A stretch of DNA of 64,000 nt, from positions 21,699-85,698 of the IMG/VR virus record IMGVR_UViG_3300012351_000007. The stretch is one strand, 5' to 3'. The position numbers were made by a program, and so were the translations under genes. Shown here in pieces: positions 2,511-64,000 of the stretch. Within the stretch, counting starts at the first letter, position 1. Each line of letters starts with the position of its first letter. Under the pieces are notes generated by a model. It was not told the origin of the DNA and made no database searches. It saw only the letters and a program-made list of their open reading frames with translations. Origin of the DNA: a virus.

Positions 2511-5500
2511 CTAGTGGAACTGCCACGCCATCTCGTGACTGACCGCCGCCGCTATCTCCGCTGGGCTGTGATCGGGCTGCGGGTAGACGGGGATGGTGAT
2601 GTTCGGCCCGTCCGACCCGATCCGGCGGACCTGCTCGTCGGTGAGCACGAACTCGTTGCGGCCGGTGTCGTTGCGGGCGATCGTCAACCCGGGCGGCAGG
2701 ATGCCGCCCCCGTCGAAGTGGCCGACGTGGGCGAACGAGGAGACGGAGGTGACACCCCGACCGACAACGAACCCGTCACCGCCCCTGGACTCGAACGGCA
2801 GGCCCGCGAACACGCCCGCGGTGTGGCCCACCGAGCTGCCGCCCGGACCACGCTCGCCCGGGTTGGTCCAGCCAGCGGTGAAGATGCCGCCGAAGCCGCG
2901 CAGCGGGAAGTAGGGTGCCTCGTTCATGGTGGAGAACTGGTGTACGTACGGGGATTGACCATGCGCCAACCGCCATACAGCTGAGGTCGCACCGCTGCAG
3001 TCGTAGCCTCTTGGCCCCGCACTGGCCCAGATGTACGGCTTACCCGCCTGCGCCCGGATCCATGCCTGGATCCCGGCGATGTTGCCCGAGATGGGTCCGG
3101 TGAACGCTGGCCCGTAGAACACGGCCGCCCGCAGTTCGTCGGGGGTCGGCTTCCATAGGTTGGCAATGTTCACCGGGAACGGCCAAACGACAGGGCCGCC
3201 GCGCGCGAACGCGAGACCGCCGGACCCGTCGCCCGGGTAGCGGGTCTGCGGCGGCTTCAACATCCCGGCAAGCACCGCGTTGCGCAAGGCGGTGACCGCC
3301 GAATGCCCACCGGCCGCCTTCACCTCATCGGCGGTCCAGATGTGTTCGTCCAACGACAGCCGGTACCGCACGCCGGGGATCGGCCCGAGCGCCGGGATCG
3401 AATCGGAGGTGGTGGTGCCGGACCCGTAGACGGGTCCGCCTGTGGCGTGCCCGCCGACATCGGCCCGCCCGCCTGCGGTCGGGTTCTGCTCCCGCCAGAT
3501 CCTCGTGGCGGTGGGCACGTCGACACCTTGCCGTAGCGAGATCTGGGCGATCTCCAGGTTCTTCAACTGGTCCAGGGCACCCTGCACACCGGACACCTGA
3601 ACCTGGGTTGACACGTCGGTGGGTACCCGGCCGTAGGTGTCGATTAGGTGGTTGACCTGACCGGAGTCCAGGCCCAACTGCTTGGCCTGCTCCTTGATCG
3701 TCCTGATCTGGTTGTCGTGTTTGGCGGTGGCCTCTTCCACGGCGGTGCCGTTGCGGACCTGCGCGAAGTACTCGTCGTCGGCGGCCTTGAGTAGGTTCTT
3801 CACCGCGTCGTAGTTGTCCCGCGCCGACTGAGTGTTCAGGCCGATGTCGTGGGAGCCCTGCTGGACGGACTGGCTTAGCCGGTCCTGGGCGGCCTTGAAA
3901 TCCTCAGCGGCTTGGTCGGCGGAACGCATCGCACCGAACAGGGCGTCGTCGGCCTGCTTGAGCGCGTCGGCCTTTTGCGCGGCTGTCGATGTCCGGTCGG
4001 CGAGCACGTTGAGGGCGTTACCGAGGGCCGCCTGCGCGGCGGTCTGCTTGTACGCCGAGTCGGCCGCCTTGTCCTGCTGCCCGGCGAGGATGGCCTCCAC
4101 CTGGGCGTTGTCGTTGATCTGGCCGTAGGTGCTTTTCAACGCGTCGCGTAGTTGCCGTTCCCGGTTGAGCTGCTTGAGGCCAGCGTCGGACAGCGAGAAG
4201 TTGGAGAACTGCTCCTCGTCCTTCTTGATTTTCGCGTCGAGGGCGGCGGTCACCTCGTCCTGGGCGCCCTTCTCGCCCTTGAGTGCCCGCACCAGCGCGT
4301 CGCTGGTGATGCCGTAGTCGCCGGCCAGCCGGACTGCCCGGGAGAAGTCCTCATTCCCCTCGACGATTGACTTCACGGTGTCCTTGTTGGCGCCGCCGGC
4401 CGCATTGAGGGCGGTGTGCAGCGCGACCATGGCCCGGGTGAGTTCCTCGGTGCGTGCCCGCTGCGCGGCGAGGGCGGAACTGACGGCGGTGAACGCGATG
4501 AACGCGCCCGCCACGGCCAACCCGATGACGCCTCCGGTGCCGAGCCCCGACGCGAGTTGACTCAGCGCCCCACCGGCGCCCTGCGCCCCGCCCTTGATGC
4601 CTGCCAGGGCGGTGCCGAACGTGCCGAACGAACCGGAGGTGCCGGCCATCGCCGTACCGGCACCGGCGACCGACGCGTTGTAGATCCGCTGGGCGGCGGC
4701 CCAGATGGGCAGGAGGGTGACCTGGGCCGCTTGGATGGCCTGCCACGCCTTCATGGCCACCACAACACCGGAGATTGTCCCGACGAGGACGGTCAGCACC
4801 GGGATCGGCAGGACGTTGATGACATCGGCGAGCAGCCGGATCGTGGTGATGACGACCCCGCCGACCGGCTGCGCGGCCTCGGCGATTCGCCCGACGGCCA
4901 CCACCAGTTGGCCGAGGACGGCTATCACGATGGGGGTTTCGGTGCGGATGTAGCCGAGCAGGTTCTGGAAGCCGGTGTTGTGTTCCAGGCTGGTGCCCCA
5001 GTAGGCGAACCGTTCCGATAGGTACAGCAGGCCCTGGCCGAAGTTCTGCCCGATGGGTAGGACCGCCCGGACCAGCCCGGAAACCCCGACAGCGGCGTTG
5101 GCGGCGGCAGGCGCGAATATGATCAGCGCCGTGTTGGCCTCCCCCGCCATGAAGTGGAAGAACGACTGCCAGTAGGGGGCGGCGAGTGCCCTTCCCGCCT
5201 CGGCGGCAAGGTTGCCCATGGTGCGGGAAAGGGTGCCGACATCGCCGATGATCTGGGGCATGACCGGCAGCAGCGCCGAAATGCCGGTCTGCAACCCGGG
5301 CAGGAACCCGGCCTGCGCGGCGGCGGTCAGGTCCAGCCACACCGGCTTCAGCGAGTACAGGAAGGTGGCGAACGCCTGACCCTCCGGGGACAGAGCGGCC
5401 ATCTTCTGCCGCAGCGTGTCCATCGCCGACGACCCGGCGGTGCCGGCGGCGACGGTGGCCTGCTGCAGCGACCGTTGCGCCGACACCACACCCTGCGACG

Positions 5501-9656: not shown

Positions 9657-10100
9657 TCAGACGCCGGTCGGCGAAATGTCCTTACACACCAGGTCCCGCT
9701 GCCAGATGAGGGTTCCGGCGAGCACATCCACCACCCGCAGCACCCGGGTTGTCAGCGACGGGTCGGCCGCGCACACGGTGAGCACCAGTTCGTCGTTGAT
9801 CCGGACGCCGGTCTGTTCGGCCGGGATCGCGATGTAGTAGCGGTGCAGCGGCGTCTGGCTGGGGGAGACGGTCAGCTCCTCCTCATGCCGTCGGTCCCGT
9901 GGGGTTTGCTGCGCCCGGCACGGCCCGGTGTAGACGGTTACCGCAGGCGGGTAGACGGTGCGGCCCAACGTGTTGTCCCACACGCCCGGGCCGGCGGGCC
10001 GGGTGATGGTGCACTGGTCGAGCATCTGCTGCTCGGCCGTGAGGCGATGATGTGACGCCCACCCGCTGCCGATCACCTGCGTGTTGGGTAGCGGAGACAT
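9657..10100 (-). CDS. Head closure/stopper protein (DUF6093-like)
   Basis: Start MSPLPN; MLDQCTITR and VYTGPCRAQ motifs; position after the connector gene. Confidence 0.75.
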   Translation of the reverse strand: MSPLPNTQVIGSGWASHHRLTAEQQMLDQCTITRPAGPGVWDNTLGRTVYPPAVTVYTGPCRAQQTPRDRRHEEELTVSPSQTPLHRYYIAIPAEQTGVRINDELVLTVCAADPSLTTRVLRVVDVLAGTLIWQRDLVCKDISPTGV

Positions 10101-10747
10101 CAGGGCGCGACACCCAGTTCGCCGAACTCGGCCTCGATCCAGGAGTTCGGGTTGTAGTCCACGATGTCGAAGGCGAACAGGCTCCCGGCGGCGTCCCGGT
10201 CGGCGGCCTGGTCCCGCAGTGCCTGGGCCCGTGCCCGGAGTTCGGCGGCGACCTTCGCCCCGTCGGTTGCCAGATCCTGGGTCTTGATGACCTTGCTGAC
10301 GAGCACCTCGGACGAGGCGATGGTGTCCAGGGCCTGCGCGGCGGCCAGCCGCACATTGCCCTGCTCGATGGTGAGGAACGCGCCGATCTGCCCGTCGGTT
10401 AACAGCGGTGCCGTGTCGGACAGGTCGGTGGACAGCAGCCGCACCTGCCCGACGGGTGTGGTCGGGTCGGTGGTGATCGGCGGGCCGGGCAGCGGGTTCG
10501 CGGCGACGTACACCTGCTGCGGCTCGGCACCCGCCCCGGTGCCTGAGACGGTCCACAGGTACACCCACCAGCCGGCCTGGTTGAGGATGACACTGACCCC
10601 GGTCCAGGTGTGGCCGCCGTCGGCGGTGGTCGTGGCCGGGTGGGTGGTAGTGCCGTCGGGGGCCAGCACAGCGAGGGTTGCTGCGGTGGTGCCGTCGTAG
10701 GGGGTGACCGTCAACTGCGGGATGTCCACATCACCTATGCCGAGCAC
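10100..10747 (-). CDS. Head-tail connector with N-terminal beta-sandwich extension
   Basis: TPVGQVRLL, VRLAAAQALDTIASSEVLVSKVIKTQDLATDG motif. Confidence 0.82.
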   Translation of the reverse strand: MLGIGDVDIPQLTVTPYDGTTAATLAVLAPDGTTTHPATTTADGGHTWTGVSVILNQAGWWVYLWTVSGTGAGAEPQQVYVAANPLPGPPITTDPTTPVGQVRLLSTDLSDTAPLLTDGQIGAFLTIEQGNVRLAAAQALDTIASSEVLVSKVIKTQDLATDGAKVAAELRARAQALRDQAADRDAAGSLFAFDIVDYNPNSWIEAEFGELGVAP

Positions 10748-10759
10748 GGCCGCCCCCTG

Positions 10760-11938
10760 TCACGGTGAGAGGCGGCTGGCCGCGGCGAGTTCGGGCGGCG
10801 AACGCAGGGCGGTCAGGGTCGGCCGGGTGTCCGTGGCGGTGAGGGTGGAGTTCGGGCGGTCGGTGGCGGTCAGGACCAATGCGGGCGGCCCGACCGCCCC
10901 GGCGCGAACTGTCGCTTCGTAAGCGGCGCCGAGGGCTTGCGCGGCCTGAACAGCCGCCAGGACCGTGAGAGACGGCGCGCTGGCGGTACCCAGCCCGGTT
11001 GCCGTGGGTGCGGCGGTGGTGGCCGCCACGGCGGGCTGCCCGGCTGTTCCCGCGCCGGTCGCCGAGCCGGCCTGCGTGGTCACCGTGGCCGATGCTGTGC
11101 CGGCAGCGGCGGGCCCGGTGGCGGCGGCCGTGTAGGCGACAACGGACACCCCGGGGGCGTTGGCGCTACCGGTGCCCGAGGCGGGCTGCGCCGAGGCGAC
11201 TGTTTCGCTGCTCGACGAGCCGGTGACGTTGTAGGCGGCCCCGGTCCCGGTGCCCGCCTGCGGGTAGACGACGATCGTAGCCGCAGGGCCTGGTGCGGTG
11301 CCTGTCGAGTCGGCCGGGGCGGCGGACGGTGCCACTGCGGCGGATGTCCCGAGTGCACTGCCGGTGCCGGGCGCGACACCCGCAACTGGGGCGAGGGTGG
11401 CTGCGGGGGGGAACGCCGACCCGGTGCCGGTCGCCGACGCGGCGGGGGTCACCTGCGGGCTAGCGTTCGGGGCGGCGCCAACACCCGTAGCTGCGGTCGG
11501 GTTGGAGACGACCTGCGCTGACGCCGCGGCGCTCCCCGTACCGGACACCGCCGGGGCTGCCGGGGCCACCGTCGGGGCCACGTTGAACGCGGCACCCGTA
11601 CCACTGGACGCGCCCGCGTTGGGGGTGACAACTGCTGTTGCCGACGCGGACCCGACACCCGAGGCGTTCCCGACATTGGGGGAGACTGCGGCGGACGGGT
11701 TGTTCGCCGCACCCGTCCCGGTCGCCGCGACGGCGTAGGCGGTCACCAACGCGCCCGGGTTGGGCGCCGAGCCGGTCCCGGAGGCTACGGCAGCGTTCGG
11801 GGTGACCTGCGCGGCGACGGCGTTGGCTGTGCCCGTTCCGGTGGCGGTGGTCGCGTTCGCTGTTGTTGATGCGGCACCCGCCGAGGCGGGGAGGATGACG
11901 ATCGCCGAGACGGGCTGGGCGCGGCCGATGCGGGCCAC
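10760..11938 (-). CDS. Ala/Thr/Gly-rich repetitive virion (fibre-like) protein
   Basis: About 20-aa imperfect repeats (A-x-A-x-G-T-G-x-A...V-x-P). Confidence 0.7.
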   Translation of the reverse strand: MARIGRAQPVSAIVILPASAGAASTTANATTATGTGTANAVAAQVTPNAAVASGTGSAPNPGALVTAYAVAATGTGAANNPSAAVSPNVGNASGVGSASATAVVTPNAGASSGTGAAFNVAPTVAPAAPAVSGTGSAAASAQVVSNPTAATGVGAAPNASPQVTPAASATGTGSAFPPAATLAPVAGVAPGTGSALGTSAAVAPSAAPADSTGTAPGPAATIVVYPQAGTGTGAAYNVTGSSSSETVASAQPASGTGSANAPGVSVVAYTAAATGPAAAGTASATVTTQAGSATGAGTAGQPAVAATTAAPTATGLGTASAPSLTVLAAVQAAQALGAAYEATVRAGAVGPPALVLTATDRPNSTLTATDTRPTLTALRSPPELAAASRLSP

Positions 11939-11947
11939 CGGCGCCCC

Positions 11948-13907: not shown

Positions 13908-14195
13908 TTACGCCCCCGTCCCACTCTGCTCGTCGTACCGGGCCTTGACCGCCTCGTGCGCCTGCGTCGCCGCTTCGGCCTCGGCCTCGTGCGCGGGCAG
14001 GGAGTCCTCGGCGCCGCGCAGGTGCTCCCGCAGGCGCTCGATCTTCCCCTTCAGGGCGTCCACCGCATCGGCAGCCCGGGACGCTTCGGTGGCATGCCGG
14101 CGTACCGTCTCCGCGTCCACCACGTCCGGCAGCGGCCCGGGTTCGGCTGTAGCCACGGCATCGTGCGCCGAACCGGCGCCGTCAGGTGTGGTCAA
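13908..14195 (-). CDS. Hypothetical coiled-coil protein
   Basis: Overlapping start/stop coupling. Confidence 0.6.
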   Translation of the reverse strand: MTTPDGAGSAHDAVATAEPGPLPDVVDAETVRRHATEASRAADAVDALKGKIERLREHLRGAEDSLPAHEAEAEAATQAHEAVKARYDEQSGTGA

Positions 14196-14512
14196 AGGAA
14201 GTCCCCCAAGCGTGCTTGTGCGGTCGGCGGGTAGACGGTGCAGTCCTCACCTTCGTCGCGCGTCGTATAGACGGCCATCACGGGCACCCCGCGGTTGTCG
14301 GTCTGCACCAGTTCCCCCGCCACGTAGTCCTCCCGTTCCACCGCGGTCACCTTGCAGCGGGTGCCGGCGGGGACCAGCGGGACCGACAGGCCGTGCATCC
14401 CGGGGCAGTTGTGCATCGGGATCCCCGACGACTGCCCGCGAGTGACGTGGGTGTGGTCGCATGCCCCGCACTCCCAGCGGCGTTCCGGGGCGAGCAGCAC
14501 TGGGCGGCTCAA
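14192..14512 (-). CDS. Cys/His-containing hypothetical protein
   Basis: TTGA coupling; RWECGAC...MHNC...VEREDYV. Confidence 0.65.
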   Translation of the reverse strand: MSRPVLLAPERRWECGACDHTHVTRGQSSGIPMHNCPGMHGLSVPLVPAGTRCKVTAVEREDYVAGELVQTDNRGVPVMAVYTTRDEGEDCTVYPPTAQARLGDFL

Positions 14513-31231: not shown

Positions 31232-31639
31232 TCACAGTCCGATTCCTCTCATGGGGTTGTCGCGCCACATGTCGTACTCCACCGGGGGCGTCGGCTCAGC
31301 CCACCCGGTTAGCGGCGACCAGTACCGCGCCACGATCCCGAGAATCACCGCCGGTGAGCGCTCGCGGTACTCCTGGAAGACGCCAGTCCGCCACCGCCAC
31401 TCTCGGTTGTTACATGAGCGACACAGCCACCCTCGGATACTGCCCGTCTGGTGGTCGTGGTCAAGGACCTCCAAGGTGTCCGCGCACACTGCACATCGGC
31501 CGGCTTGCCATTCGGCGAGGACGGAGTCTCCCGTGAAGTCGGTGGCGGCTGCGGCTGCGGCACGGACGCCATCGCTGATTGGCCACTCCCAGCATGCCGG
31601 ATGCTCCGGGGCGGGCCGCCAGTAAAATACGTCAGTCAC
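31232..31639 (-). CDS. Endonuclease VII-like domain protein
   Basis: QAGRCAVC...LDHDHQTGSIRGWLCRSCN. Confidence 0.78.
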   Translation of the reverse strand: MTDVFYWRPAPEHPACWEWPISDGVRAAAAAATDFTGDSVLAEWQAGRCAVCADTLEVLDHDHQTGSIRGWLCRSCNNREWRWRTGVFQEYRERSPAVILGIVARYWSPLTGWAEPTPPVEYDMWRDNPMRGIGL

Positions 31640-32636
31640 GATCCACCCCGGCGGTGGCGGCAGCCACGAGGTAGGACGGGTCGCGGTCGAGGGATGCGCG
31701 GGCACGGTCGTAGCGCTGGGTGGTGCGCGGGTCGGCATGGCCTAGGGCGTACTGCCGCTCCTCCAGCGGCGCGCCGCGTTCCCGGGCGATGGTTGCCCAG
31801 GCATGCCGGAACGAGTGCGGGGTGATCCTCGCCCAGGAGTTGATGCCAGCCGCTTTCGCCGAGCGGCGCACGAAGGCGGCCACCTGGAAGCGGTTGATCC
31901 GTCGCCCGTCCTCGTCAAGGAACAGCGGACCGGTCGTCCGGTCGCCGACGTATGCGGCCAGCGCGGCGGCCAAATCCGGGGGAACCGCCCGGGTACGGAC
32001 CTTCCCGCCTTTCATCTGAAGAGCGGCCGTGCGGTGCCCCGAGTCGTGGCCAAGGTGCTCAACATCGAGGGCGCAGATCTCCGACACCCGGGCGCCGATC
32101 TCGACGAGGAACCCGGCAAGAGCCGCCCCGCAGGCCGGGCCGAGGAAACGGTCCTTCCTCGCCGCTTCCCGCAGCGCGGTTGCTTCGTCGGCGTTCAGCC
32201 CGATGGTGGTCGTGTGGTCCTTATCCACTCGCGGGCGCCGGACTCGCCCGCACGGGTTCGCGGTGACCTTCCCCGCGTCGAGCAGGTAGCCGTACCACGA
32301 CGAGACGACCGACAGGCGCCGCGCAAGACTCGCCGGGGAGAGCGGGCGGCCGGTTCGGGGGTTGGGGAGGTTGGCGAGCATCGCGGCGAACGCATCGACG
32401 TGGGGGCGCCGGGCGGTGAGCGGGTCCAGTGGCGGTTGGCGTTCGGCGCACCAGGCGAGCCACGCGGTGATGTCGCGGCGGTAGGCGCCACGGGTGTCGG
32501 CTGATTCCCGGAATGACAGGAGCCACGCGGCGGTGAGCGACTGGAGGTCATCGCCCTCGACCGCGGCGACCGGGTCAACGATCTCCCCGTGGATGACTGG
32601 AGCTAGCGCGGTTCTCCCGAGATCGAGATCGGTCAT
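31632..32636 (-). CDS. Tyrosine recombinase, XerC/D-like resolvase
   Basis: SAM-like N-domain; GARVSE, KGGK, HSFRH, LGHA...TQRY catalytic set. Confidence 0.92.
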   Translation of the reverse strand: MTDLDLGRTALAPVIHGEIVDPVAAVEGDDLQSLTAAWLLSFRESADTRGAYRRDITAWLAWCAERQPPLDPLTARRPHVDAFAAMLANLPNPRTGRPLSPASLARRLSVVSSWYGYLLDAGKVTANPCGRVRRPRVDKDHTTTIGLNADEATALREAARKDRFLGPACGAALAGFLVEIGARVSEICALDVEHLGHDSGHRTAALQMKGGKVRTRAVPPDLAAALAAYVGDRTTGPLFLDEDGRRINRFQVAAFVRRSAKAAGINSWARITPHSFRHAWATIARERGAPLEERQYALGHADPRTTQRYDRARASLDRDPSYLVAAATAGVDRD

Positions 32637-32682
32637 AGGCCCGAGGGTAGGCGTCGAGTGGCGTCCGTCGATTGTGCCGCGC

Positions 32683-32710
32683 CGCACACATAAGGGGAAT
32701 TATGTGAGGC
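32683..32710. other. dif/res-like recombination site
   Basis: CGCACACATAA-GGGGAA-TTATGTGAGGC: 11-6-11 geometry with ACATAA/TTATGT inner palindrome, about 50 bp upstream of the recombinase. Confidence 0.75.
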
Positions 32711-54950: not shown

Positions 54951-55721
54951 TCACGGCGCCACCTCCGCCCCTACCCGCCGCGCCTCATACGGGCGGTACG
55001 GCCACGCGTCGTCCAGGTCGGCGATGCGGCCCATTAGTTCGTCGGCCTCCTGCTCCAACACGCAACGGCCTTCGCTGCCCTCGTCGAACTGCTCGGCGTC
55101 GTAGGACTTCTGTTCCAGTTCGCGCATCAGGTAGCGGCGGAACGAAGCCGTCTGGTCGGCCCGCCACTGGGCTTGCGCCTCGTGCAGGTCGAACAGGTCC
55201 GCGGACCGGATGTGGTGGTGCCGTTCGGCCTGCCGCCACGCCACCCGGGCCGCCGCCAACGCGTCGTGGGCCGAGTCGTGGGCACCGTCGATCCGCACCC
55301 CGTAGGTGGCGCACAGGTCCGGCAGCCGCCGCTTCCCCCGCCGGTACGGGTCCACCGCCTTCAACGTGGGTAGGCCGTTGCGGCGTAGCTCCCGGTCCAG
55401 GATGGTCAGGTCGAACGCGATGTTCATGCCGACGACGGGGACCTTGGCCAGCAGCGCGAACGCCAGGTCGGCGGCGACCACGTCCAGCACGTCGACCGCG
55501 GGGCGCCCGTTCGCTTGGGCGTGTTCGGTGGTGATGCCGTGGATCGCTGTCGCCTCGGCCGGGATGTCCACGTCCACCTTGACCAGATGGGAGCGGACAT
55601 CGGTCGGCTCACCTGGGCGGATCAGCGCGACCGTGGCGGTAACGATGCGGTCCTGCTCAACGTCAACGCCTGTTGTCTCGGTGTCGTACCCCGCCATCGG
55701 ACCCTTGTGCCAGGCCATCAC
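54951..55721 (-). CDS. DEDDh 3'-5' exonuclease (possible internal deletion)
   Basis: YDTETTG, NIAFDLTIL, AHDSAHDA motifs. Confidence 0.88.
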   Translation of the reverse strand: MMAWHKGPMAGYDTETTGVDVEQDRIVTATVALIRPGEPTDVRSHLVKVDVDIPAEATAIHGITTEHAQANGRPAVDVLDVVAADLAFALLAKVPVVGMNIAFDLTILDRELRRNGLPTLKAVDPYRRGKRRLPDLCATYGVRIDGAHDSAHDALAAARVAWRQAERHHHIRSADLFDLHEAQAQWRADQTASFRRYLMRELEQKSYDAEQFDEGSEGRCVLEQEADELMGRIADLDDAWPYRPYEARRVGAEVAP

Positions 55722-56788
55722 GCCGCGTCCTTCCGTGCCGTGTTCAGTGCGTCCAGGAACCTGCGCATGTCCGCCTCGCTCGCCTCGTCCGACGAGTGGC
55801 CGACCAGTTCACAGAAGTGCTTCTCCAGCACGTCGATGTCGTCCCACGGCGCGGCGGCGAGAATGTCCGACCACAGCGACTCCAGATCGGACGGTTCGGT
55901 CACCTCCGCGTCGATGACGGTCCGCTGCGCGGGGACTGCGGTGGCGCGCAGGGCAGCAGCTCGGGCCTCGAACAGCCGCAGCAATTCAGGGGTGTCCTTG
56001 CCTTCGGCCTTCGCCTGCTTGTGTAGGTCGAACAGCGCCTCCACCGTCTTGGCTGCGTCGACCAGCGACGGGTAGTCCACGTTTGCCTCGATCGCGGCCC
56101 GCACCTGCCCGTCAATCGCCGAGGCGCGGCGGGCGGCGATGAGTTCCTGCACCCGCCCCGACAGCAGTTGGCCAGAGGTCCAGTCGTCGGTGTCGAGCAC
56201 CGGCACGACGAAGTTCATGGTTTTGCCGGCACGGGTGACGGTGCGCTGGTCCAGGATCAGTTTCGCCGGGATGATGCCCTGCGCCTGGGCGAGCAGGGCG
56301 GCGATGCCGGGCAGCTCGACGGCGGCGTAGAACGAGCCGGTGTCCACCCGCCAGCAGCCCAGCCCGGGAACGTCCTCCAGCATCACCCGCAGCCGGGTGT
56401 GCATGGAACACTCGCGGGCCTGCGGGTCGCACAGGCACGCCTGCCGGGTGATCTTCTCCATCTGCCCGTCGCAGCGGCGCTGACATCCGCCAGCCGACCA
56501 CATCTCGTACCACTGCGACTCGGCCGGGTCCTGCGGCGGCACCAGCACCGGAACCTGGGTGGCGTTGGTGACGACCTGCCACTGCTGGTTGCCCCGTGGC
56601 GGCTGCCACGCCTCCACGGTGCCGCCGTACAGTTCGGCGATCCGGTCGATGAGGGTGCGGCGGGGGGAGGTGAACCGCAGCCGGTCCAGTTTCGCCGGCC
56701 GCTCTTTGCCGTTGGCGGCCTTCACTTTCACGCCGAGCCGGATCCGGCCCACTTCTGTTTGCGCCTGTTGCAAGCCCAAGATGGCCAC
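55718..56788 (-). CDS. Recombination directionality factor-like (phage gp3-like) protein
   Basis: EVGRIRLG...KLDRLRFTS...YEMWSAGGCQRRCDG...TRLRVML...VVPVL; paired with the exonuclease. Confidence 0.75.
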   Translation of the reverse strand: MAILGLQQAQTEVGRIRLGVKVKAANGKERPAKLDRLRFTSPRRTLIDRIAELYGGTVEAWQPPRGNQQWQVVTNATQVPVLVPPQDPAESQWYEMWSAGGCQRRCDGQMEKITRQACLCDPQARECSMHTRLRVMLEDVPGLGCWRVDTGSFYAAVELPGIAALLAQAQGIIPAKLILDQRTVTRAGKTMNFVVPVLDTDDWTSGQLLSGRVQELIAARRASAIDGQVRAAIEANVDYPSLVDAAKTVEALFDLHKQAKAEGKDTPELLRLFEARAAALRATAVPAQRTVIDAEVTEPSDLESLWSDILAAAPWDDIDVLEKHFCELVGHSSDEASEADMRRFLDALNTARKDAA

Positions 56789-57657
56789 TACTTGTCCTTG
56801 AGGGTGAGGGGTCGGGAGAGCACCGTGTTGAGGCCCGCGTCGAGTCCTTCGGCGAGGCGCAGCGCGTGGATGAAGTAGGCGAGGTTCGCGTCGGTCAGGT
56901 AGACCTCGCGTGTCTGGACCTTGTCCGGGCGGATGTGCACGACCAAGCCGCCCTTGATTTCGGGCATCGGTTCCTCGGACCCGTCGGGCAGCAGTACCGC
57001 GTCGGCGTTGGCGTAGGCGACGACCTGCCAGCCCTTGGGGATGTCGAGGTTCTTCGAGGTCTTGTAGTCGCCGACCAGGGGGAGGTCGGCGAGGTGCGCG
57101 AACTCCTTCGGCAGGGTGGGTCCGGCGGGGAGCCGGATGATTTTGTCGAGGGTGCCGGCGTACCCCCACTTGCGGGAGATGACGGTCATCTCGGTGGCGA
57201 GGTATTCGGGTTGGAACGCCTCGCGCCACCGCAGGTACTGGTCAACGAACGGCTGGACCTCTTCATCGATCTGGGCGCCTTCGCCGAACAGGGAGATCTG
57301 TTCGGCGGCCTCGTGGAGGCGGGTGCCGATGGATCCGGCTTCGTCGCGGACGTCGTTGCCTCGGTTCGACAGCCACAAGATGGCGCACGGCCGGCACTGT
57401 CCACAGGCGTTGTCGGTCTTGGTGGCGTTGCAATCAGGGTTGCGAGAGCAGCGGATCACCCAGGGCAGCCGGTCGAATGCGGCCTCGGAGGCGAGGCGGG
57501 CTGCCCAGTCGGCGAGGCCGAACTTGGCGATGCGGGACAGCGCTGTGGTGACGGACCTGAACCGTTCGCCGGTTATCGGGTGCGGGTACCAGCGGGACCC
57601 GTCGGCCGATGTTTCGGCGTGGATCGGCTCGCGCTTGGTTGTGGTCGGCGCGCTCAT
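56788..57657 (-). CDS. PD-(D/E)XK (RecB/Cas4-like) exonuclease
   Basis: SVTTAL, GTRLH, YAGTLD, DYKTS, QVVAY motifs. Confidence 0.85.
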   Translation of the reverse strand: MSAPTTTKREPIHAETSADGSRWYPHPITGERFRSVTTALSRIAKFGLADWAARLASEAAFDRLPWVIRCSRNPDCNATKTDNACGQCRPCAILWLSNRGNDVRDEAGSIGTRLHEAAEQISLFGEGAQIDEEVQPFVDQYLRWREAFQPEYLATEMTVISRKWGYAGTLDKIIRLPAGPTLPKEFAHLADLPLVGDYKTSKNLDIPKGWQVVAYANADAVLLPDGSEEPMPEIKGGLVVHIRPDKVQTREVYLTDANLAYFIHALRLAEGLDAGLNTVLSRPLTLKDK

Positions 57658-60065: not shown

Positions 60066-60482
60066 TTGCGGGGGGATGCGTTGAACGCGAAACGTCGGGG
60101 GCGGCGAATCCACGCCGACATGGTTGCCCGTTGGGGCGGCTTCACTACAGGTGCCCTACTCGTCGCCTACGACCTGGTGACCGTCGTCGCCCAGTTGCCG
60201 AGCCTCCCTGTTGGCCCGCACATCGACCTGTTCGCGGTCGCCCTGGTCCTCGCCGTGTGGGGGTCCATCCGCCGCTTCGAGCGCATCACCATCACCCCGC
60301 AACGGGAGATCTGGCTGCATGGCGTCCAGTACGGCCGGGAAGCCGCCTACGAGGAATGCGGTGCCCAGGGCAGCGTGGTGCCGTTGCCGCTGAACCTGTT
60401 CGCCAGCGACCTCGTACCGGACCGCTCGACGGGGCGGCCAGCCAGCCACCGGCCCAGCCCGCGGCGCCGACGGGCGAACTAG
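60066..60482 (+). CDS. Membrane protein in the lysogeny module
   Basis: Two hydrophobic segments; between repressor and integrase. Confidence 0.55.
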   Translation: MRGDALNAKRRGRRIHADMVARWGGFTTGALLVAYDLVTVVAQLPSLPVGPHIDLFAVALVLAVWGSIRRFERITITPQREIWLHGVQYGREAAYEECGAQGSVVPLPLNLFASDLVPDRSTGRPASHRPSPRRRRAN

Positions 60483-61384
60483 AGCCGGTCGCCGAGGGAC
60501 AGCCGCCGGGATGCCCGCTGCGCCCGCTCCACCTGCGCCGAGCGGCCGTACCGACGTGGCATCTCCGCCGACGACCAGCCGAACAGCGCCATCGCGTCGC
60601 CCTCCGAACCGCCCTGATCGGCCCAGACATGGGCCGAAGTGTGCCGCAACTGGTGGGGGTGGACGTGCCCGATCCCAGCAACCCTCGACCGACGGCGCAA
60701 CATCTGCGTGATCCCGGAGACGGTCAGCGGACCACCCCGGCCACCCAGCCACAGTTCGGGCAGCGACGCCAGCTTGTGCCGGGCGCGCACCCGCAGATAC
60801 CGGTCCAATGATTGCCCTGTGCGGGCGCCGAACGGAATCACCCGGATCTTGTCGCCCTTCCCGTGGATCCGCACGGTGTCGTGGCGCATGTCCAGGTCGG
60901 GTGCCTCCTTCGGTCCGCGGTCCAGCAGCAGACCAGCCATCTCGGCGACCCGGGGTGAACCCGGCTCGCAGAACAGCCGGATGATCGCGGTGTCCCGCCG
61001 GTCCTCGAAGCCCTTCCCCTCGCACACCTTCAGCAGCCGCCGCAACTGGTCGTCGGTCAGGACCGCCACCGGCTCGTCGGTAACGGTCGGCTGGCGCATC
61101 CGAGCCATCGGCGACACGTCGATGATCTCTTCCCGGACGGCCCAGTTGTAGAACGCCCGCAGCGCGCGGAACCGCACTGCCGCAGTCGTTGATGCGTGCT
61201 GGTCGAGGATGTGCGTGATGTACTCCTGCACCTCGGCCTTGGTCAAGCCGAGCACGTCGGCGTCGTTGTGGAGGGCCGCCAGTTGAAGGATCGTCTCGAC
61301 GTAGTTCTGGATGGTGCGGGGCGAGCTGTTGCGGGAGCGCAGGTCGCGGCCGTAGGCGTCGAGGTGGGCGGCGTTGATGTCCAT
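60479..61384 (-). CDS. int: Tyrosine integrase
   Basis: PRVAE, GKGDK, HQLRH, FGWS...RRY catalytic set; adjacent to the att core; TACGCT -10 box (leaderless). Confidence 0.92.
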   Translation of the reverse strand: MDINAAHLDAYGRDLRSRNSSPRTIQNYVETILQLAALHNDADVLGLTKAEVQEYITHILDQHASTTAAVRFRALRAFYNWAVREEIIDVSPMARMRQPTVTDEPVAVLTDDQLRRLLKVCEGKGFEDRRDTAIIRLFCEPGSPRVAEMAGLLLDRGPKEAPDLDMRHDTVRIHGKGDKIRVIPFGARTGQSLDRYLRVRARHKLASLPELWLGGRGGPLTVSGITQMLRRRSRVAGIGHVHPHQLRHTSAHVWADQGGSEGDAMALFGWSSAEMPRRYGRSAQVERAQRASRRLSLGDRL

Positions 61385-61454: not shown

Positions 61455-61491
61455 ACAAGAAGGCCACCTGAACTTCCTGCTCAGGTGGCCT
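61455..61491 (-). terminator. Terminator downstream of the tRNA fragment
   Basis: AGGCCACCTGA/TCAGGTGGCCT stem followed by TCTTGTT on the minus strand. Confidence 0.75.
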
Positions 61492-61493
61492 GC

Positions 61494-61537
61494 TGCGCGC
61501 CCGAAGGGACTCGAACCCCCAACCTTCTGATCCGTAG
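61494..61537 (-). other. att core = 3' half of tRNA-Arg(ACG)
   Basis: CTACGGATCAGAAGGTTGGGGGTTCGAGTCCCTTCGGGCGCGCA: anticodon loop, T-arm and acceptor 3' strand; 5' half absent. Confidence 0.88.
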
Positions 61538-61606
61538 TATGCGGCCTGTAAGCGCTGTGGCGCACCGTGTCTGACCTCGTACTGGTCGGGAGCGTGGAAA
61601 CGCAGA

Positions 61607-61825: not shown

Positions 61826-62172
61826 GGGGGTATCAACGAGCGCGAGCCGGACATGCCTCAGCCCCGGCTGATCCGGACTCCCCCGGGCCGGGGCTGAGCG
61901 CAGAGCCGTCCTCCACTTGACGCGGACCCGGACGGTCGTTCCGCGCTGCGGACCGGAGCTGCCTACCGATCGCGAGCTTTCACTACTCCGCCGCCCGGTG
62001 TCAGTCCGGAGGGGCGTCCCCGGATACGGCACCGCACAGCCGTTTCGCTACGCCGGGGGTCTAGGTCGGTAGGTACCCGCCCCGGTTCGGCCTTATCACT
62101 ACCCGATCCGGGTCAGCGTAGCGCCGGGGTACGACACGAATCCACGAACGCCGCACGGGTACCGTCCGGATC

Positions 62173-62415
62173 GTGCAATACCGCTTCCTCGGCGCCTACC
62201 AGACCCCGGACGGACGGTGGCGGATCGAGGTCTGGGCAGGACGTGGGGCGCAGTGGTACACCGTGCTCCACGACGGGCAGGTTTACGACCGGGACGGCTT
62301 CCTGTGCGAGCGGGTGCCCCTCGGCACCGTCGAGGCGGTGCTGCGCGCCAACGGGGTCAGCATGGCCGACCTGCGGCCGGAGACTGCGGACGGGCCGGAC
62401 GACGGACCAGCGTGA
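62173..62415 (+). CDS. Hypothetical protein (80 aa)
   Basis: TPDGRWRIEV...GVSMADL; high GC3. Confidence 0.6.
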   Translation: MQYRFLGAYQTPDGRWRIEVWAGRGAQWYTVLHDGQVYDRDGFLCERVPLGTVEAVLRANGVSMADLRPETADGPDDGPA

Positions 62416-62665
62416 GCCCGTCCAGGTCAACTGGCATCCACCGGTCCACGCCTGCGGTTTGCGCCGCCCACCGCTGCTCGTTCGCCATGCGGCGGATCAG
62501 CACCGCCTGCCCCTTCCCTACCCGGCCGCACACCACCGACCACACCTTGTCCCGCACCCGGGCACTGGGAGTGCCGACGAACACGCCCGGGGCGATCTCC
62601 ACCATCCACCGGGTCAGATGCCCGCGCAGCCCGGACGGTGCGGCGATAAGCACGATGACCGTCAT
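62357..62665 (-). CDS. cas2: CRISPR-associated Cas2, type I-E
   Basis: APSGLRGHLTRWMVEIAPGVFVG..SARVRDKVW, NEQ, PVDLDGLTLV. Confidence 0.95.
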   Translation of the reverse strand: MTVIVLIAAPSGLRGHLTRWMVEIAPGVFVGTPSARVRDKVWSVVCGRVGKGQAVLIRRMANEQRWAAQTAGVDRWMPVDLDGLTLVRRPARPQSPAAGRPC

Positions 62666-63663
62666 TGCTCGTCCAGCTCCGACCAGTCCACCTTGCCTAG
62701 GTCGACCGCCTCCTGCTCATCGGCCCAGTTCCGTCCCGCCGGCACGGCACCGTTGGTGTCCCACAACTGGGCGCGATGTACGTCCGCCTCGTCGTCGAGC
62801 CCGTCTGGCTCCTCTTCCCCGGCGGTGGCCTTGTCCTCGCCGAGCAGCAGGGCTTGGATGTCCCGTACCACCCGGGCCATCAGCCCCTGCTCCACCACCA
62901 GATCCCGGAATCGGGTCCGCGCCGCCGACTCCTCCGTGGCGCCTTCGGACATCAGATCGAATGCGGCCGGGATCGTCGTCATGGCTTTGTACAGGTCGGC
63001 GATGTCGAGCACGAACGAGATGGCCGACCCGGTGTGGACGAAGCCGAGTGCTGGGCTGGCACCCAGGCCGACGGTGGCGGCGTGGCACACCCCGTAGAGG
63101 CAGGCGTTGAGCGCCGACAGTACCCGGTTGATGTCGTCACCGGCTGCGAACGGCTTCCCGGCCACATACTTGCGCCCGGACCACGCAACCCCGGTGCGGG
63201 AGGCGTGCAGCCGGTAGGAGCGGCGCACCCGGGCACCCTCCCGGCCCCGCAGTTGCTGCATCGACAGTTTGGAAACGTTCTCGCCAGGGAACCGCATCTG
63301 GTACATCTGCCGGGCAACACCGAGGCGCCGCTTGTTGTCCGACACCAGCCAGGCTTGGCGCTGCAGGTAGCGGGATGTGTGGGCGGTGGACACGCCGTGG
63401 GCATACATCCGGACGCCGTTCTCCCCGACCCAACAGACGGTGGTCCCGGAATCGGCCAACAGCCGCACCGCGCTGTGGGTCACCTTCGTGCCCGGTCCGA
63501 GTAGCAACGCGGACACCATTGCGGCCGGCAGGTGGGTTTCGCCCTCGGCGTCCAGGAGGGTGACCGCGTTGTCTTCGCGGCCGATCACGGCCCGATCAAC
63601 GTAGACCGTTGAGATTCGCTCCCCGATCCGGGTGAGCATTCCTGTCTCTGCTTTCCACCACAT
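62662..63663 (-). CDS. cas1: CRISPR-associated Cas1, type I-E
   Basis: LLLGPGTKVTH, WVGENGVRMYA, QLRGREGARVR, LGFVHTG, FVLDIADLYK; catalytic E/H/D intact. Confidence 0.96.
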   Translation of the reverse strand: MWWKAETGMLTRIGERISTVYVDRAVIGREDNAVTLLDAEGETHLPAAMVSALLLGPGTKVTHSAVRLLADSGTTVCWVGENGVRMYAHGVSTAHTSRYLQRQAWLVSDNKRRLGVARQMYQMRFPGENVSKLSMQQLRGREGARVRRSYRLHASRTGVAWSGRKYVAGKPFAAGDDINRVLSALNACLYGVCHAATVGLGASPALGFVHTGSAISFVLDIADLYKAMTTIPAAFDLMSEGATEESAARTRFRDLVVEQGLMARVVRDIQALLLGEDKATAGEEEPDGLDDEADVHRAQLWDTNGAVPAGRNWADEQEAVDLGKVDWSELDEQ

Positions 63664-63785
63664 GCCGGAAGATGCTGCCGCCCGGGCGTCGGGCCGGGCA
63701 ACGTTCCGAACGGGTGAACCGATGCGGCCGGGCCGCTACCCAGCGGCTGGTAGCCCAATCGGAGCTATTTTTGGAGTCCTTCTTG

Positions 63786-64000
63786 ACACGCTCATGCGCG
63801 CCCGGGCCGGCCTGCCGTACCGGCGGGTCCGACACAACGCGACTCCGCCATCCCCGCGCGCCCGGACCGGACGGCGGCGGCCCGGTCACCGAGACGCAGG
63901 GCCAGCCGCCACCCCCGCGCGCCCGGACCGGACGCACCGCACGCACCGCCCTCGACTGGGCCTGCACCGCCACCCCCGCGCGCCCGGACCGGCCCACCAC
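63786..64000 (-). CRISPR. Atypical type I-E-derived CRISPR array (runs off the window edge)
   Basis: 29-bp repeats at 63845, 63906 and 63967 (61-bp period, unique 32-bp spacers) plus a degenerate terminal repeat at about 63786-63812. Confidence 0.85.

Follow-up and report, generated by a model that had tools for sequence, protein, structure and literature searches.

A CRISPR array of type I-E geometry with hairpin-less repeats, carried with cas1e-cas2e by a soil actinobacterial phage or mobile element and probably linked to Cas12n-like nucleases

In type V-N systems, whose effector is Cas12n (formerly V-U4 or C2c9), the CRISPR array lies directly downstream of the nuclease gene, and the nuclease uses a 5'-AAN PAM (PMC12216341). 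The Cas12r-CRISPR loci of Thermus Lalka phages comprise a TnpB-derived nuclease gene followed by a short array with 29-bp repeats and 32-33-bp spacers. These phages integrate at tRNA genes and encode no adaptation genes; their repeats share elements with the host I-E repeat, and the I-E adaptation machinery was proposed to fill the array (bioRxiv 10.64898/2026.04.20.719267). Cas12r was placed on a TnpB branch found only in thermophiles (bioRxiv 10.64898/2026.04.20.719267). TnpB-size nucleases with CRISPR arrays, some of them in phages, are also known as TranC, represented by LaTranC (PDB 9jfo and 9jfq; bioRxiv 10.64898/2026.03.27.714800). According to a 2023 survey of TnpB and Cas12 proteins, Cas12 lineages captured adaptation modules repeatedly and independently, and the capture of an array, as opposed to its growth from a guide RNA, 'cannot be ruled out' (PMC10691335).

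In the open-access papers searched, we found no account of an actinophage family with hairpin-less repeats derived from type I-E, a Cas1e lineage of its own and Cas12n-like effectors. Phage RNA anti-CRISPRs are solitary repeat units related to host repeats, and the published RNA decoys of this kind mimic the protein-binding hairpin. The locus described here resembles them in consisting of phage-borne copies of repeats related to those of the host, but it differs from them by its regular spacers, its integrase and the loss of the protein-binding hairpin.

The DNA analysed here, hereafter called the window, represents the last 64 kb of an 85,698-bp IMG/VR virus record with a CheckV completeness of 97%. 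At its end, three full 29-nt repeats (plus-strand coordinates 63845-63873, 63906-63934 and 63967-63995; identity 90-100%) are spaced by exactly 61 bp, and the contig contains each of the three intervening 32-nt spacers just once. On the minus strand the order is array, cas1e and cas2e, with the array upstream of cas1, as follows:

63967-63995, minus strand: CRISPR repeat, the most leader-ward copy on the contig, with its outer 3 nt unlike those of the other copies
63935-63966, minus strand: spacer 3, 32 nt, unique
63906-63934, minus strand: CRISPR repeat, with a 28-nt core identical to the repeat of loci L124 and L125 (see below)
63874-63905, minus strand: spacer 2, 32 nt, unique
63845-63873, minus strand: CRISPR repeat, a variant in which ATGG replaces GTGG
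63813-63844, minus strand: spacer 1, 32 nt, unique
63784-63812, minus strand: degenerate terminal (trailer) repeat, read directly, adjoining the cas1 side
63664-63783, minus strand: trailer and cas1 upstream region, about 120 bp between the array and cas1e
62662-63663, minus strand: cas1e, 333 aa (TIGR03638, 340 bits; alignment with PDB 8hi1), with intact E/H/D catalytic motifs
62357-62665, minus strand: cas2e, 102 aa, overlapping the cas1 stop (PF09707, 108 bits; TIGR01873)
62122-62415, plus strand: small convergent ORF with high GC3 and no family match

This is a real CRISPR array of which only the trailer, promoter-distal end is in view. The final base of the window is also the final base of the record, and the array is thus cut by the assembly. 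The degenerate copy, which retains only the central CATGCGCGCCCGGGCCGG portion, adjoins cas1, indicating that the visible copies form the trailer end and that the leader lies beyond the end of the contig. The same polarity, with degenerate copies at the end away from the leader, is found in three related arrays described below (L143, L126 and G405). Neither an I-E leader junction motif nor a sigma-70-like promoter was detected in the region between the array and cas1e (63664-63783). Among the Logan contigs of four soil runs, none extends past the array.

At the DNA level the array is of type I-E, with 29-bp repeats, 32-bp spacers, an adjacent cas1e-cas2e pair and, in its relatives, an I-E leader junction. 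As a canonical comparator we used an actinobacterial I-E locus from Actinomadura (L141), which comprises cas1e, cas2e, a leader and at least 16 repeats CTGCTCCCCACGCACGCGGGGATGGCCCC of 29 nt with a 61-bp period. Read on the minus strand, the repeat of the window is CGTCCGGTCCGGGCGCGCGGGGRTGGCGG, and the cores of its three full copies differ by one base. Both systems have in common the repeat length, the period, the loop and 3' arm of the repeat with the first part of its handle (GCRC-GCGGGG-RTGGC), the Cas1e and Cas2e families and, judging by relatives of the window array, the leader end CCCAGGTCAG..AGT. In contrast, the 5' arm of the hairpin, CCCCRC in Actinomadura, is replaced by GTCCGG in all copies of the window and in L124 and L125, and the Cas6e stem-loop (CCCCGC-N4-GCGGGG type) is absent. 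The two loci also differ in that the array of the window is found upstream of cas1 rather than downstream of cas2, with no adjacent Cascade, cas3 or cas6e genes, and in that its Cas1 is on a long, separate branch.

The altered arm, the 61-bp period and the unique 32-nt spacers had all been described in the initial annotation of this DNA, and comparison with the Actinomadura repeat, the coordinates and the comparison of spacers within the contig bear these points out. RNAfold, proposed there as a check, yielded only an interrupted hairpin spanning the whole repeat and no better than shuffled sequences (z from +0.07 to +0.74), a statistic that discriminates poorly for 29-mers of such high G+C content, the canonical Actinomadura repeat itself reaching only z = -0.23. 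The initial remark that no spacer match within the window had been noticed by eye was likewise extended: our search for protospacers of 12 spacers (from the window, L124 and L126) revealed none in the sequences searched or in the phage collection, and the weak hits were chance or repeat matches. A scan of genome contigs with the 19-nt repeat core returned, among the matches listed, single chance hits in G+C-rich genomes and is uninformative on host arrays.

That Cas1-Cas2 had built the array had been deduced from its regularity, and a Cas1-Cas2 integrase of type I-E indeed adjoins it. The cas1e product harbours intact REGA, GFVHTG and DIADLYK motifs. It belongs to a clade of 20 proteins known only from metagenomes (63-78% identity, SH-aLRT 100), the stem of which measures 1.13 substitutions per site, and chromosomal actinobacterial Cas1e proteins are at most 62% identical to it. 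Cascade genes, cas6e and cas3 were not found in the interval separating the array from the integrase, and the ORFs scanned on the rest of the contig did not include them either.

Approximately 0.8 kb past cas2, the contig carries what we read as an attachment-site core:

61497-61541, minus strand: 3' part of a tRNA-Arg(ACG) gene, 5' half absent, read as the core of the attachment site
61461-61491, minus strand: terminator-like hairpin just past the tRNA fragment
60479-61384, minus strand: tyrosine integrase adjoining the att core (PF00589, phrog_1)

The tRNA fragment is 95% identical to the tRNA-Arg site used by corynephages, and ARAGORN detected no whole tRNA at this position. Past the integrase come genes for HTH regulators, replication proteins, terminase, portal, head and tail proteins. 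A second tyrosine integrase (355 aa, phrog_1; 31632-32699, minus strand) is encoded between the packaging and replication modules, and a 503-aa ORF (55718-57229, minus strand) harbours a Gp3-like recombination directionality factor domain (PF18897, 149 bits) within a much longer protein. At the other end of the contig (positions 1-17706, locus L127) are genes for a 964-aa AAA_10/VirB4-like ATPase, a 710-aa FtsK/SpoIIIE-like protein, a DUF2637 protein and an M23-type peptidase, as well as a GntR-like N-terminus running off the contig start. The record may correspond to a phage with a neighbouring element or to a phage with a large accessory arm.

The carrier is a soil actinobacterial phage or mobile element. 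The best explanation for the position of the array and cas1e-cas2e is that they sit on an arm of a temperate actinophage or integrative element, beside the att core. The 5' half of the tRNA gene is missing from the cas side, and the junction therefore looks less like the meeting point of a host tRNA gene and the integrase, with host DNA upstream, than like attP or the distal arm of an integrated element. The main competing view is that the prophage ends at the att core, with cas2, cas1 and the array being part either of the host chromosome or of another element integrated alongside. The order of the integrase, repressor, replication, packaging, head and tail genes is that of a prophage, and the conjugative-type genes at the other contig end (AAA_10, FtsK/SpoIIIE, DUF2637) lead us to keep a substantial, albeit minority, share of our confidence on a module belonging to a neighbouring element or to the host. 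The att core is flanked by regions of equal read depth, which is compatible with either model, and the four soil runs yielded no Logan contig bridging the core. However, no housekeeping gene was found among the ORFs scanned on the contig, the CheckV completeness of 97% applies to the entire contig, and the relatives of the module are found on viral contigs near lysis, tail or replication genes.

We then scanned metagenomes for two adjacent copies of the repeat, and two contigs matched, L124 and L125. The identical 28-nt repeat is present in at least five perfect leader-proximal units in L124 and in two units in L125, and the 28-mer is thus exactly conserved between the contig of the window and unrelated contigs. 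The altered repeat is therefore a consensus and not a product of trailer decay, and the possibility raised at the outset that canonical palindromic repeats would be found further along the array does not hold, the L124/L125 consensus being non-palindromic. Of the full array that the initial annotation had called for, the repeat could accordingly be recovered as a consensus from other contigs, while the array of the window itself stops at the contig end. L124 and L125 are ~99.6% identical over 5.2 kb of flanking sequence, with leader and first repeat alike (L124 13109-13381 compared with L125 52-141), but their first spacers are entirely different, which indicates array turnover; L125 apparently has only two repeats.

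Both arrays begin 62 nt past the stop codon of a gene for a 681-aa protein with HTH_OrfB, OrfB_IS605 and TNB domains. By its sequence, the L124 protein appears to be a TnpB-derived, Cas12n-like nuclease. Its best solved relative is RdCas12n (PDB 9J09; 137.6 bits, versus 73 bits for ISDra2 TnpB), and its RuvC residues D446 and E530 and the aspartate of its DRR motif align with the catalytic residues of RdCas12n, indicating an intact triad in L124. A C-terminal tail motif, PRGGDVRP, is conserved among the linked nucleases, and this basic tail looks disordered. In type V-N systems, a tracrRNA with an anti-repeat overlaps the 3' end of the effector ORF; the search for an anti-repeat or tracrRNA in L124 and L126, with duplex-energy and ungapped-pairing scans, revealed nothing above background.

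Searches of viral contigs with single proteins gave no matches, and a profile of effector homologues identified a viral contig, L126, that encodes a 508-aa relative (169 bits to 9J09). An array of six 29/32 units starts 60 nt past this gene, with a homologous hairpin-less repeat, GTGGGATCCCTACGCGCGAGGACGACGG, and a degenerate last copy. Both flanks of L126 match the isolated Thermobifida phage P1312 (L142, KT021004.1) at ~96% identity. In this phage, a solo copy of the L126 repeat is found between helicase and regulator genes (4001-4030), at the very spot occupied in L126 by the Cas12n-like gene and the six-unit array (9921-11944). This solo repeat either was left behind by a deletion or marks the point at which the cassette was inserted. 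The cassette is therefore a variable accessory of these phages.

With a Cas1 profile, the layout of the window (array, cas1e and cas2e) was identified in three further contigs of viruses, L143, L145 and L146. Their related, hairpin-poor repeats keep a residual stem of 3-4 bp, and their Cas1 proteins form a second clade, separate from that of the window. In L145 and L146, the repeat GTCCGACCCACGAGCGCGGGGACGACGG precedes a stand-alone cas1e-cas2e pair, and the same repeat follows a Cas12n-like gene in G404, a 132-kb phage that is rated 100% complete and has no cas1. Two repeat sub-families, represented by the window with L124 and by L145, L146 and G404, are thus found both after a Cas12n-like nuclease gene and before stand-alone cas1e-cas2e genes. 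The whole array is visible in L143, where the 9 kb upstream encode glycosyltransferases, a NUDIX protein and a peptidase but no effector, showing that array-cas1-cas2 modules can stand without an adjacent nuclease gene. L143 also harbours a two-unit mini-array (14128-14217) of a more canonical, palindromic I-E-like repeat, CATCCCCGCCGGGCGCGCGCGGGATATGG, with a 61-bp period, 3 kb downstream of cas2 and in the orientation opposite to that of the main array.

All these elements are combined in G405, a 154,048-bp phage with 98% completeness, in which the effector P0026 is followed by an 82-nt leader, eight repeats and a cas1/cas2 remnant. The first ten bases of its repeat, GTCCGGTCCGCGAGCGCGGGGGCGACGG, are those of the window repeat, its last two copies are degenerate, and the polarity of its array agrees with that of the window. 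In the remnant (L160 2989-3420, corresponding to ~68605-69040 of G405), an apparent internal deletion, which took out the greater part of both genes, has joined ~80 aa of the Cas1 N-terminus to the Cas2 C-terminus, with the effector and the array kept. G405 apart, a scan of viral contigs for GTCCGGTCCG pairs gave chance hits only. The leaders end in CCCAGGTCAGGCAGT in L124, TACAGGTCAAGAAGT in G405, CCCAGGTGATGGACT in L126 and CCCAGGTCAGCGAGT in the canonical Actinomadura array. The leader-repeat junction motif of the three phage-type loci agrees with that of the I-E leader, which argues that their leader was inherited from an I-E array.

Two members of the window Cas1 clade are probably co-located with effectors, as judged from matching contig sizes and sources: P0129 shares its longest contig size (96,877 bp) and its sources with the effector homologue P0002, and P0126 (15,682 bp) with P0007. 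The same reasoning was borne out for P0026, for which G405 encodes a protein of 100% identity. Among 401 sampled Actinomycetes genomes, six have an effector homologue, and none of the six loci examined has an array. No close relative of the effector was found in isolate phages or plasmids.

Compared with type V-N, the linked nucleases have low identity to RdCas12n, their scores of 137-169 bits coming mainly from RuvC; both repeats and leader derive recognisably from type I-E, with 29/32 spacing, Cas1e-Cas2e is attached or travels separately, the carriers are actinophages, the L124 and L126 scans found no tracrRNA, and the window itself has no visible effector. The family differs from Cas12r-CRISPR by the diverged cas1e-cas2e genes beside the array of the window and by its actinobacterial rather than Thermus hosts, and the nucleases, which are nearest to Cas12n, would be set apart from Cas12r by the published description of the latter. 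The sequence match to LaTranC is weak (E values of 0.002 for L124 and 4e-7 for L126), and the repeat and leader of the actinophage family derive from an I-E array.

Taken together, these data make it reasonably probable that the array is part of a Cas12n-like system of type V, which took over its array and adaptation module from type I-E, the effector of the window's own array being deduced from its relatives. Most likely, the repeats lost the Cas6e hairpin because the guides serve a small Cas12n-like nuclease. Of the options put forward in the initial annotation, the comparative data thus favour a different processing or effector protein, as the same or sister repeats occur directly downstream of Cas12n-like nuclease genes; a function purely at the DNA level found no support. 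The 85.7-kb contig carries no Cas12n-like gene, and the effector gene may follow a short way past the end of the contig, in an arrangement like that of G405, or a co-resident element may supply the effector in trans. An ordinary IS-type TnpB gene is present in L127 (contig positions 16420-17706), 16 kb from the other contig end. We rejected it as the effector of the array, because it encodes an ordinary 428-aa ISDra2-type protein and no part of the region downstream of it resembles the repeat.

In the proposed scenario, a TnpB-derived, Cas12n-like nuclease would have acquired an I-E leader, array and integrase. Without Cas6e as the reader, the 5' hairpin arm could have changed freely, while the leader junction and repeat length would be kept for Cas1-Cas2 and the 3' half of the repeat as the 5' handle of a Cas12-type crRNA. 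The diverged Cas1e-Cas2e would insert new spacers at the leader, the pre-crRNA would be matured without Cas6e, with the conserved 3' repeat half remaining 5' of the guide as a handle, and the nuclease would cut rival mobile DNA. The 5'-AAN PAM of Cas12n has the side and orientation of the AAG-type PAM that type I-E adaptation selects. The same argument has been made for the Thermus phages (bioRxiv 10.64898/2026.04.20.719267).

A more far-reaching version of this reading, which we regard as rather unlikely in its entirety, is that soil actinophages share a modular CRISPR system, in which some phages hold the writing half (leader, array and Cas1e-Cas2e), others the reading half (Cas12n-like nuclease and array) and a few both, the identical repeats letting the halves work in trans whenever two elements share a host. 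The family as a whole would then be a direct natural example of how a type V system originated, a nuclease descended from TnpB having taken over an existing I-E leader, array and integrase and subsequently dropped the Cas6e hairpin.

Use of the array by the type I-E Cascade of the host appears improbable. According to this hypothesis, the phage would bring its own guides and adaptation genes, rely on a tolerant Cas6e or another RNase for processing and borrow the Cascade-Cas3 of the host against competitors. Type I-E is evident in the leader motif, in the lengths of repeat and spacer, in the 3' arm and in the RTGG that opens the handle, the array, cas1 and cas2 of L143 stand alone with no nuclease nearby, and the residual stem in the L143, L145 and L146 repeats would be in line with it. 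However, the Cas6e stem is lost in all copies and in independent contigs, identical repeats are found beside Cas12n-like genes in two repeat sub-families, and none of these arrays is adjacent to cas6e, Cascade or cas3 genes.

It is more doubtful still that the locus is a decaying remnant, that is, an I-E array and adaptation module picked up with no use in interference, whose unselected hairpin drifted. Module erosion is evident in the cas1-cas2 fusion of G405, P1312 has only a solo repeat, and no target was found for any spacer. Yet, cas1 and cas2 of the window are full length with intact catalytic motifs, its three visible repeats differ by a single core base, the 28-mer is exact between unrelated contigs, and L124 and L125, despite flanks that are nearly identical, begin with different spacers. 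Finally, RNA decoys sequestering host I-E Cas proteins, another early suggestion that a phage or mobile element carrying repeats partly resembling host I-E repeats could bring to mind, are very improbable here, since the Cas6e-binding hairpin that such RNAs would have to mimic is destroyed, and the regular, unique and diverse 32-nt spacers with their turnover, the dedicated integrase and the effector-linked copies do not fit.

For the type V, Cas12n-like family favoured here, the visible I-E origin of the repeat and leader junction, together with the Cas12n-like character of the linked nuclease, makes an origin by array capture directly testable. The repeat family reveals what portion of a repeat can be dispensed with when Cas6e is not the reader, and a Cas1e lineage that maintains a non-palindromic repeat would be useful for work on repeat measurement and recognition by the I-E integrase. 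Compact phage nucleases with a matched adaptation module bear on the conflict between phages and mobile elements, and possibly on tool development.
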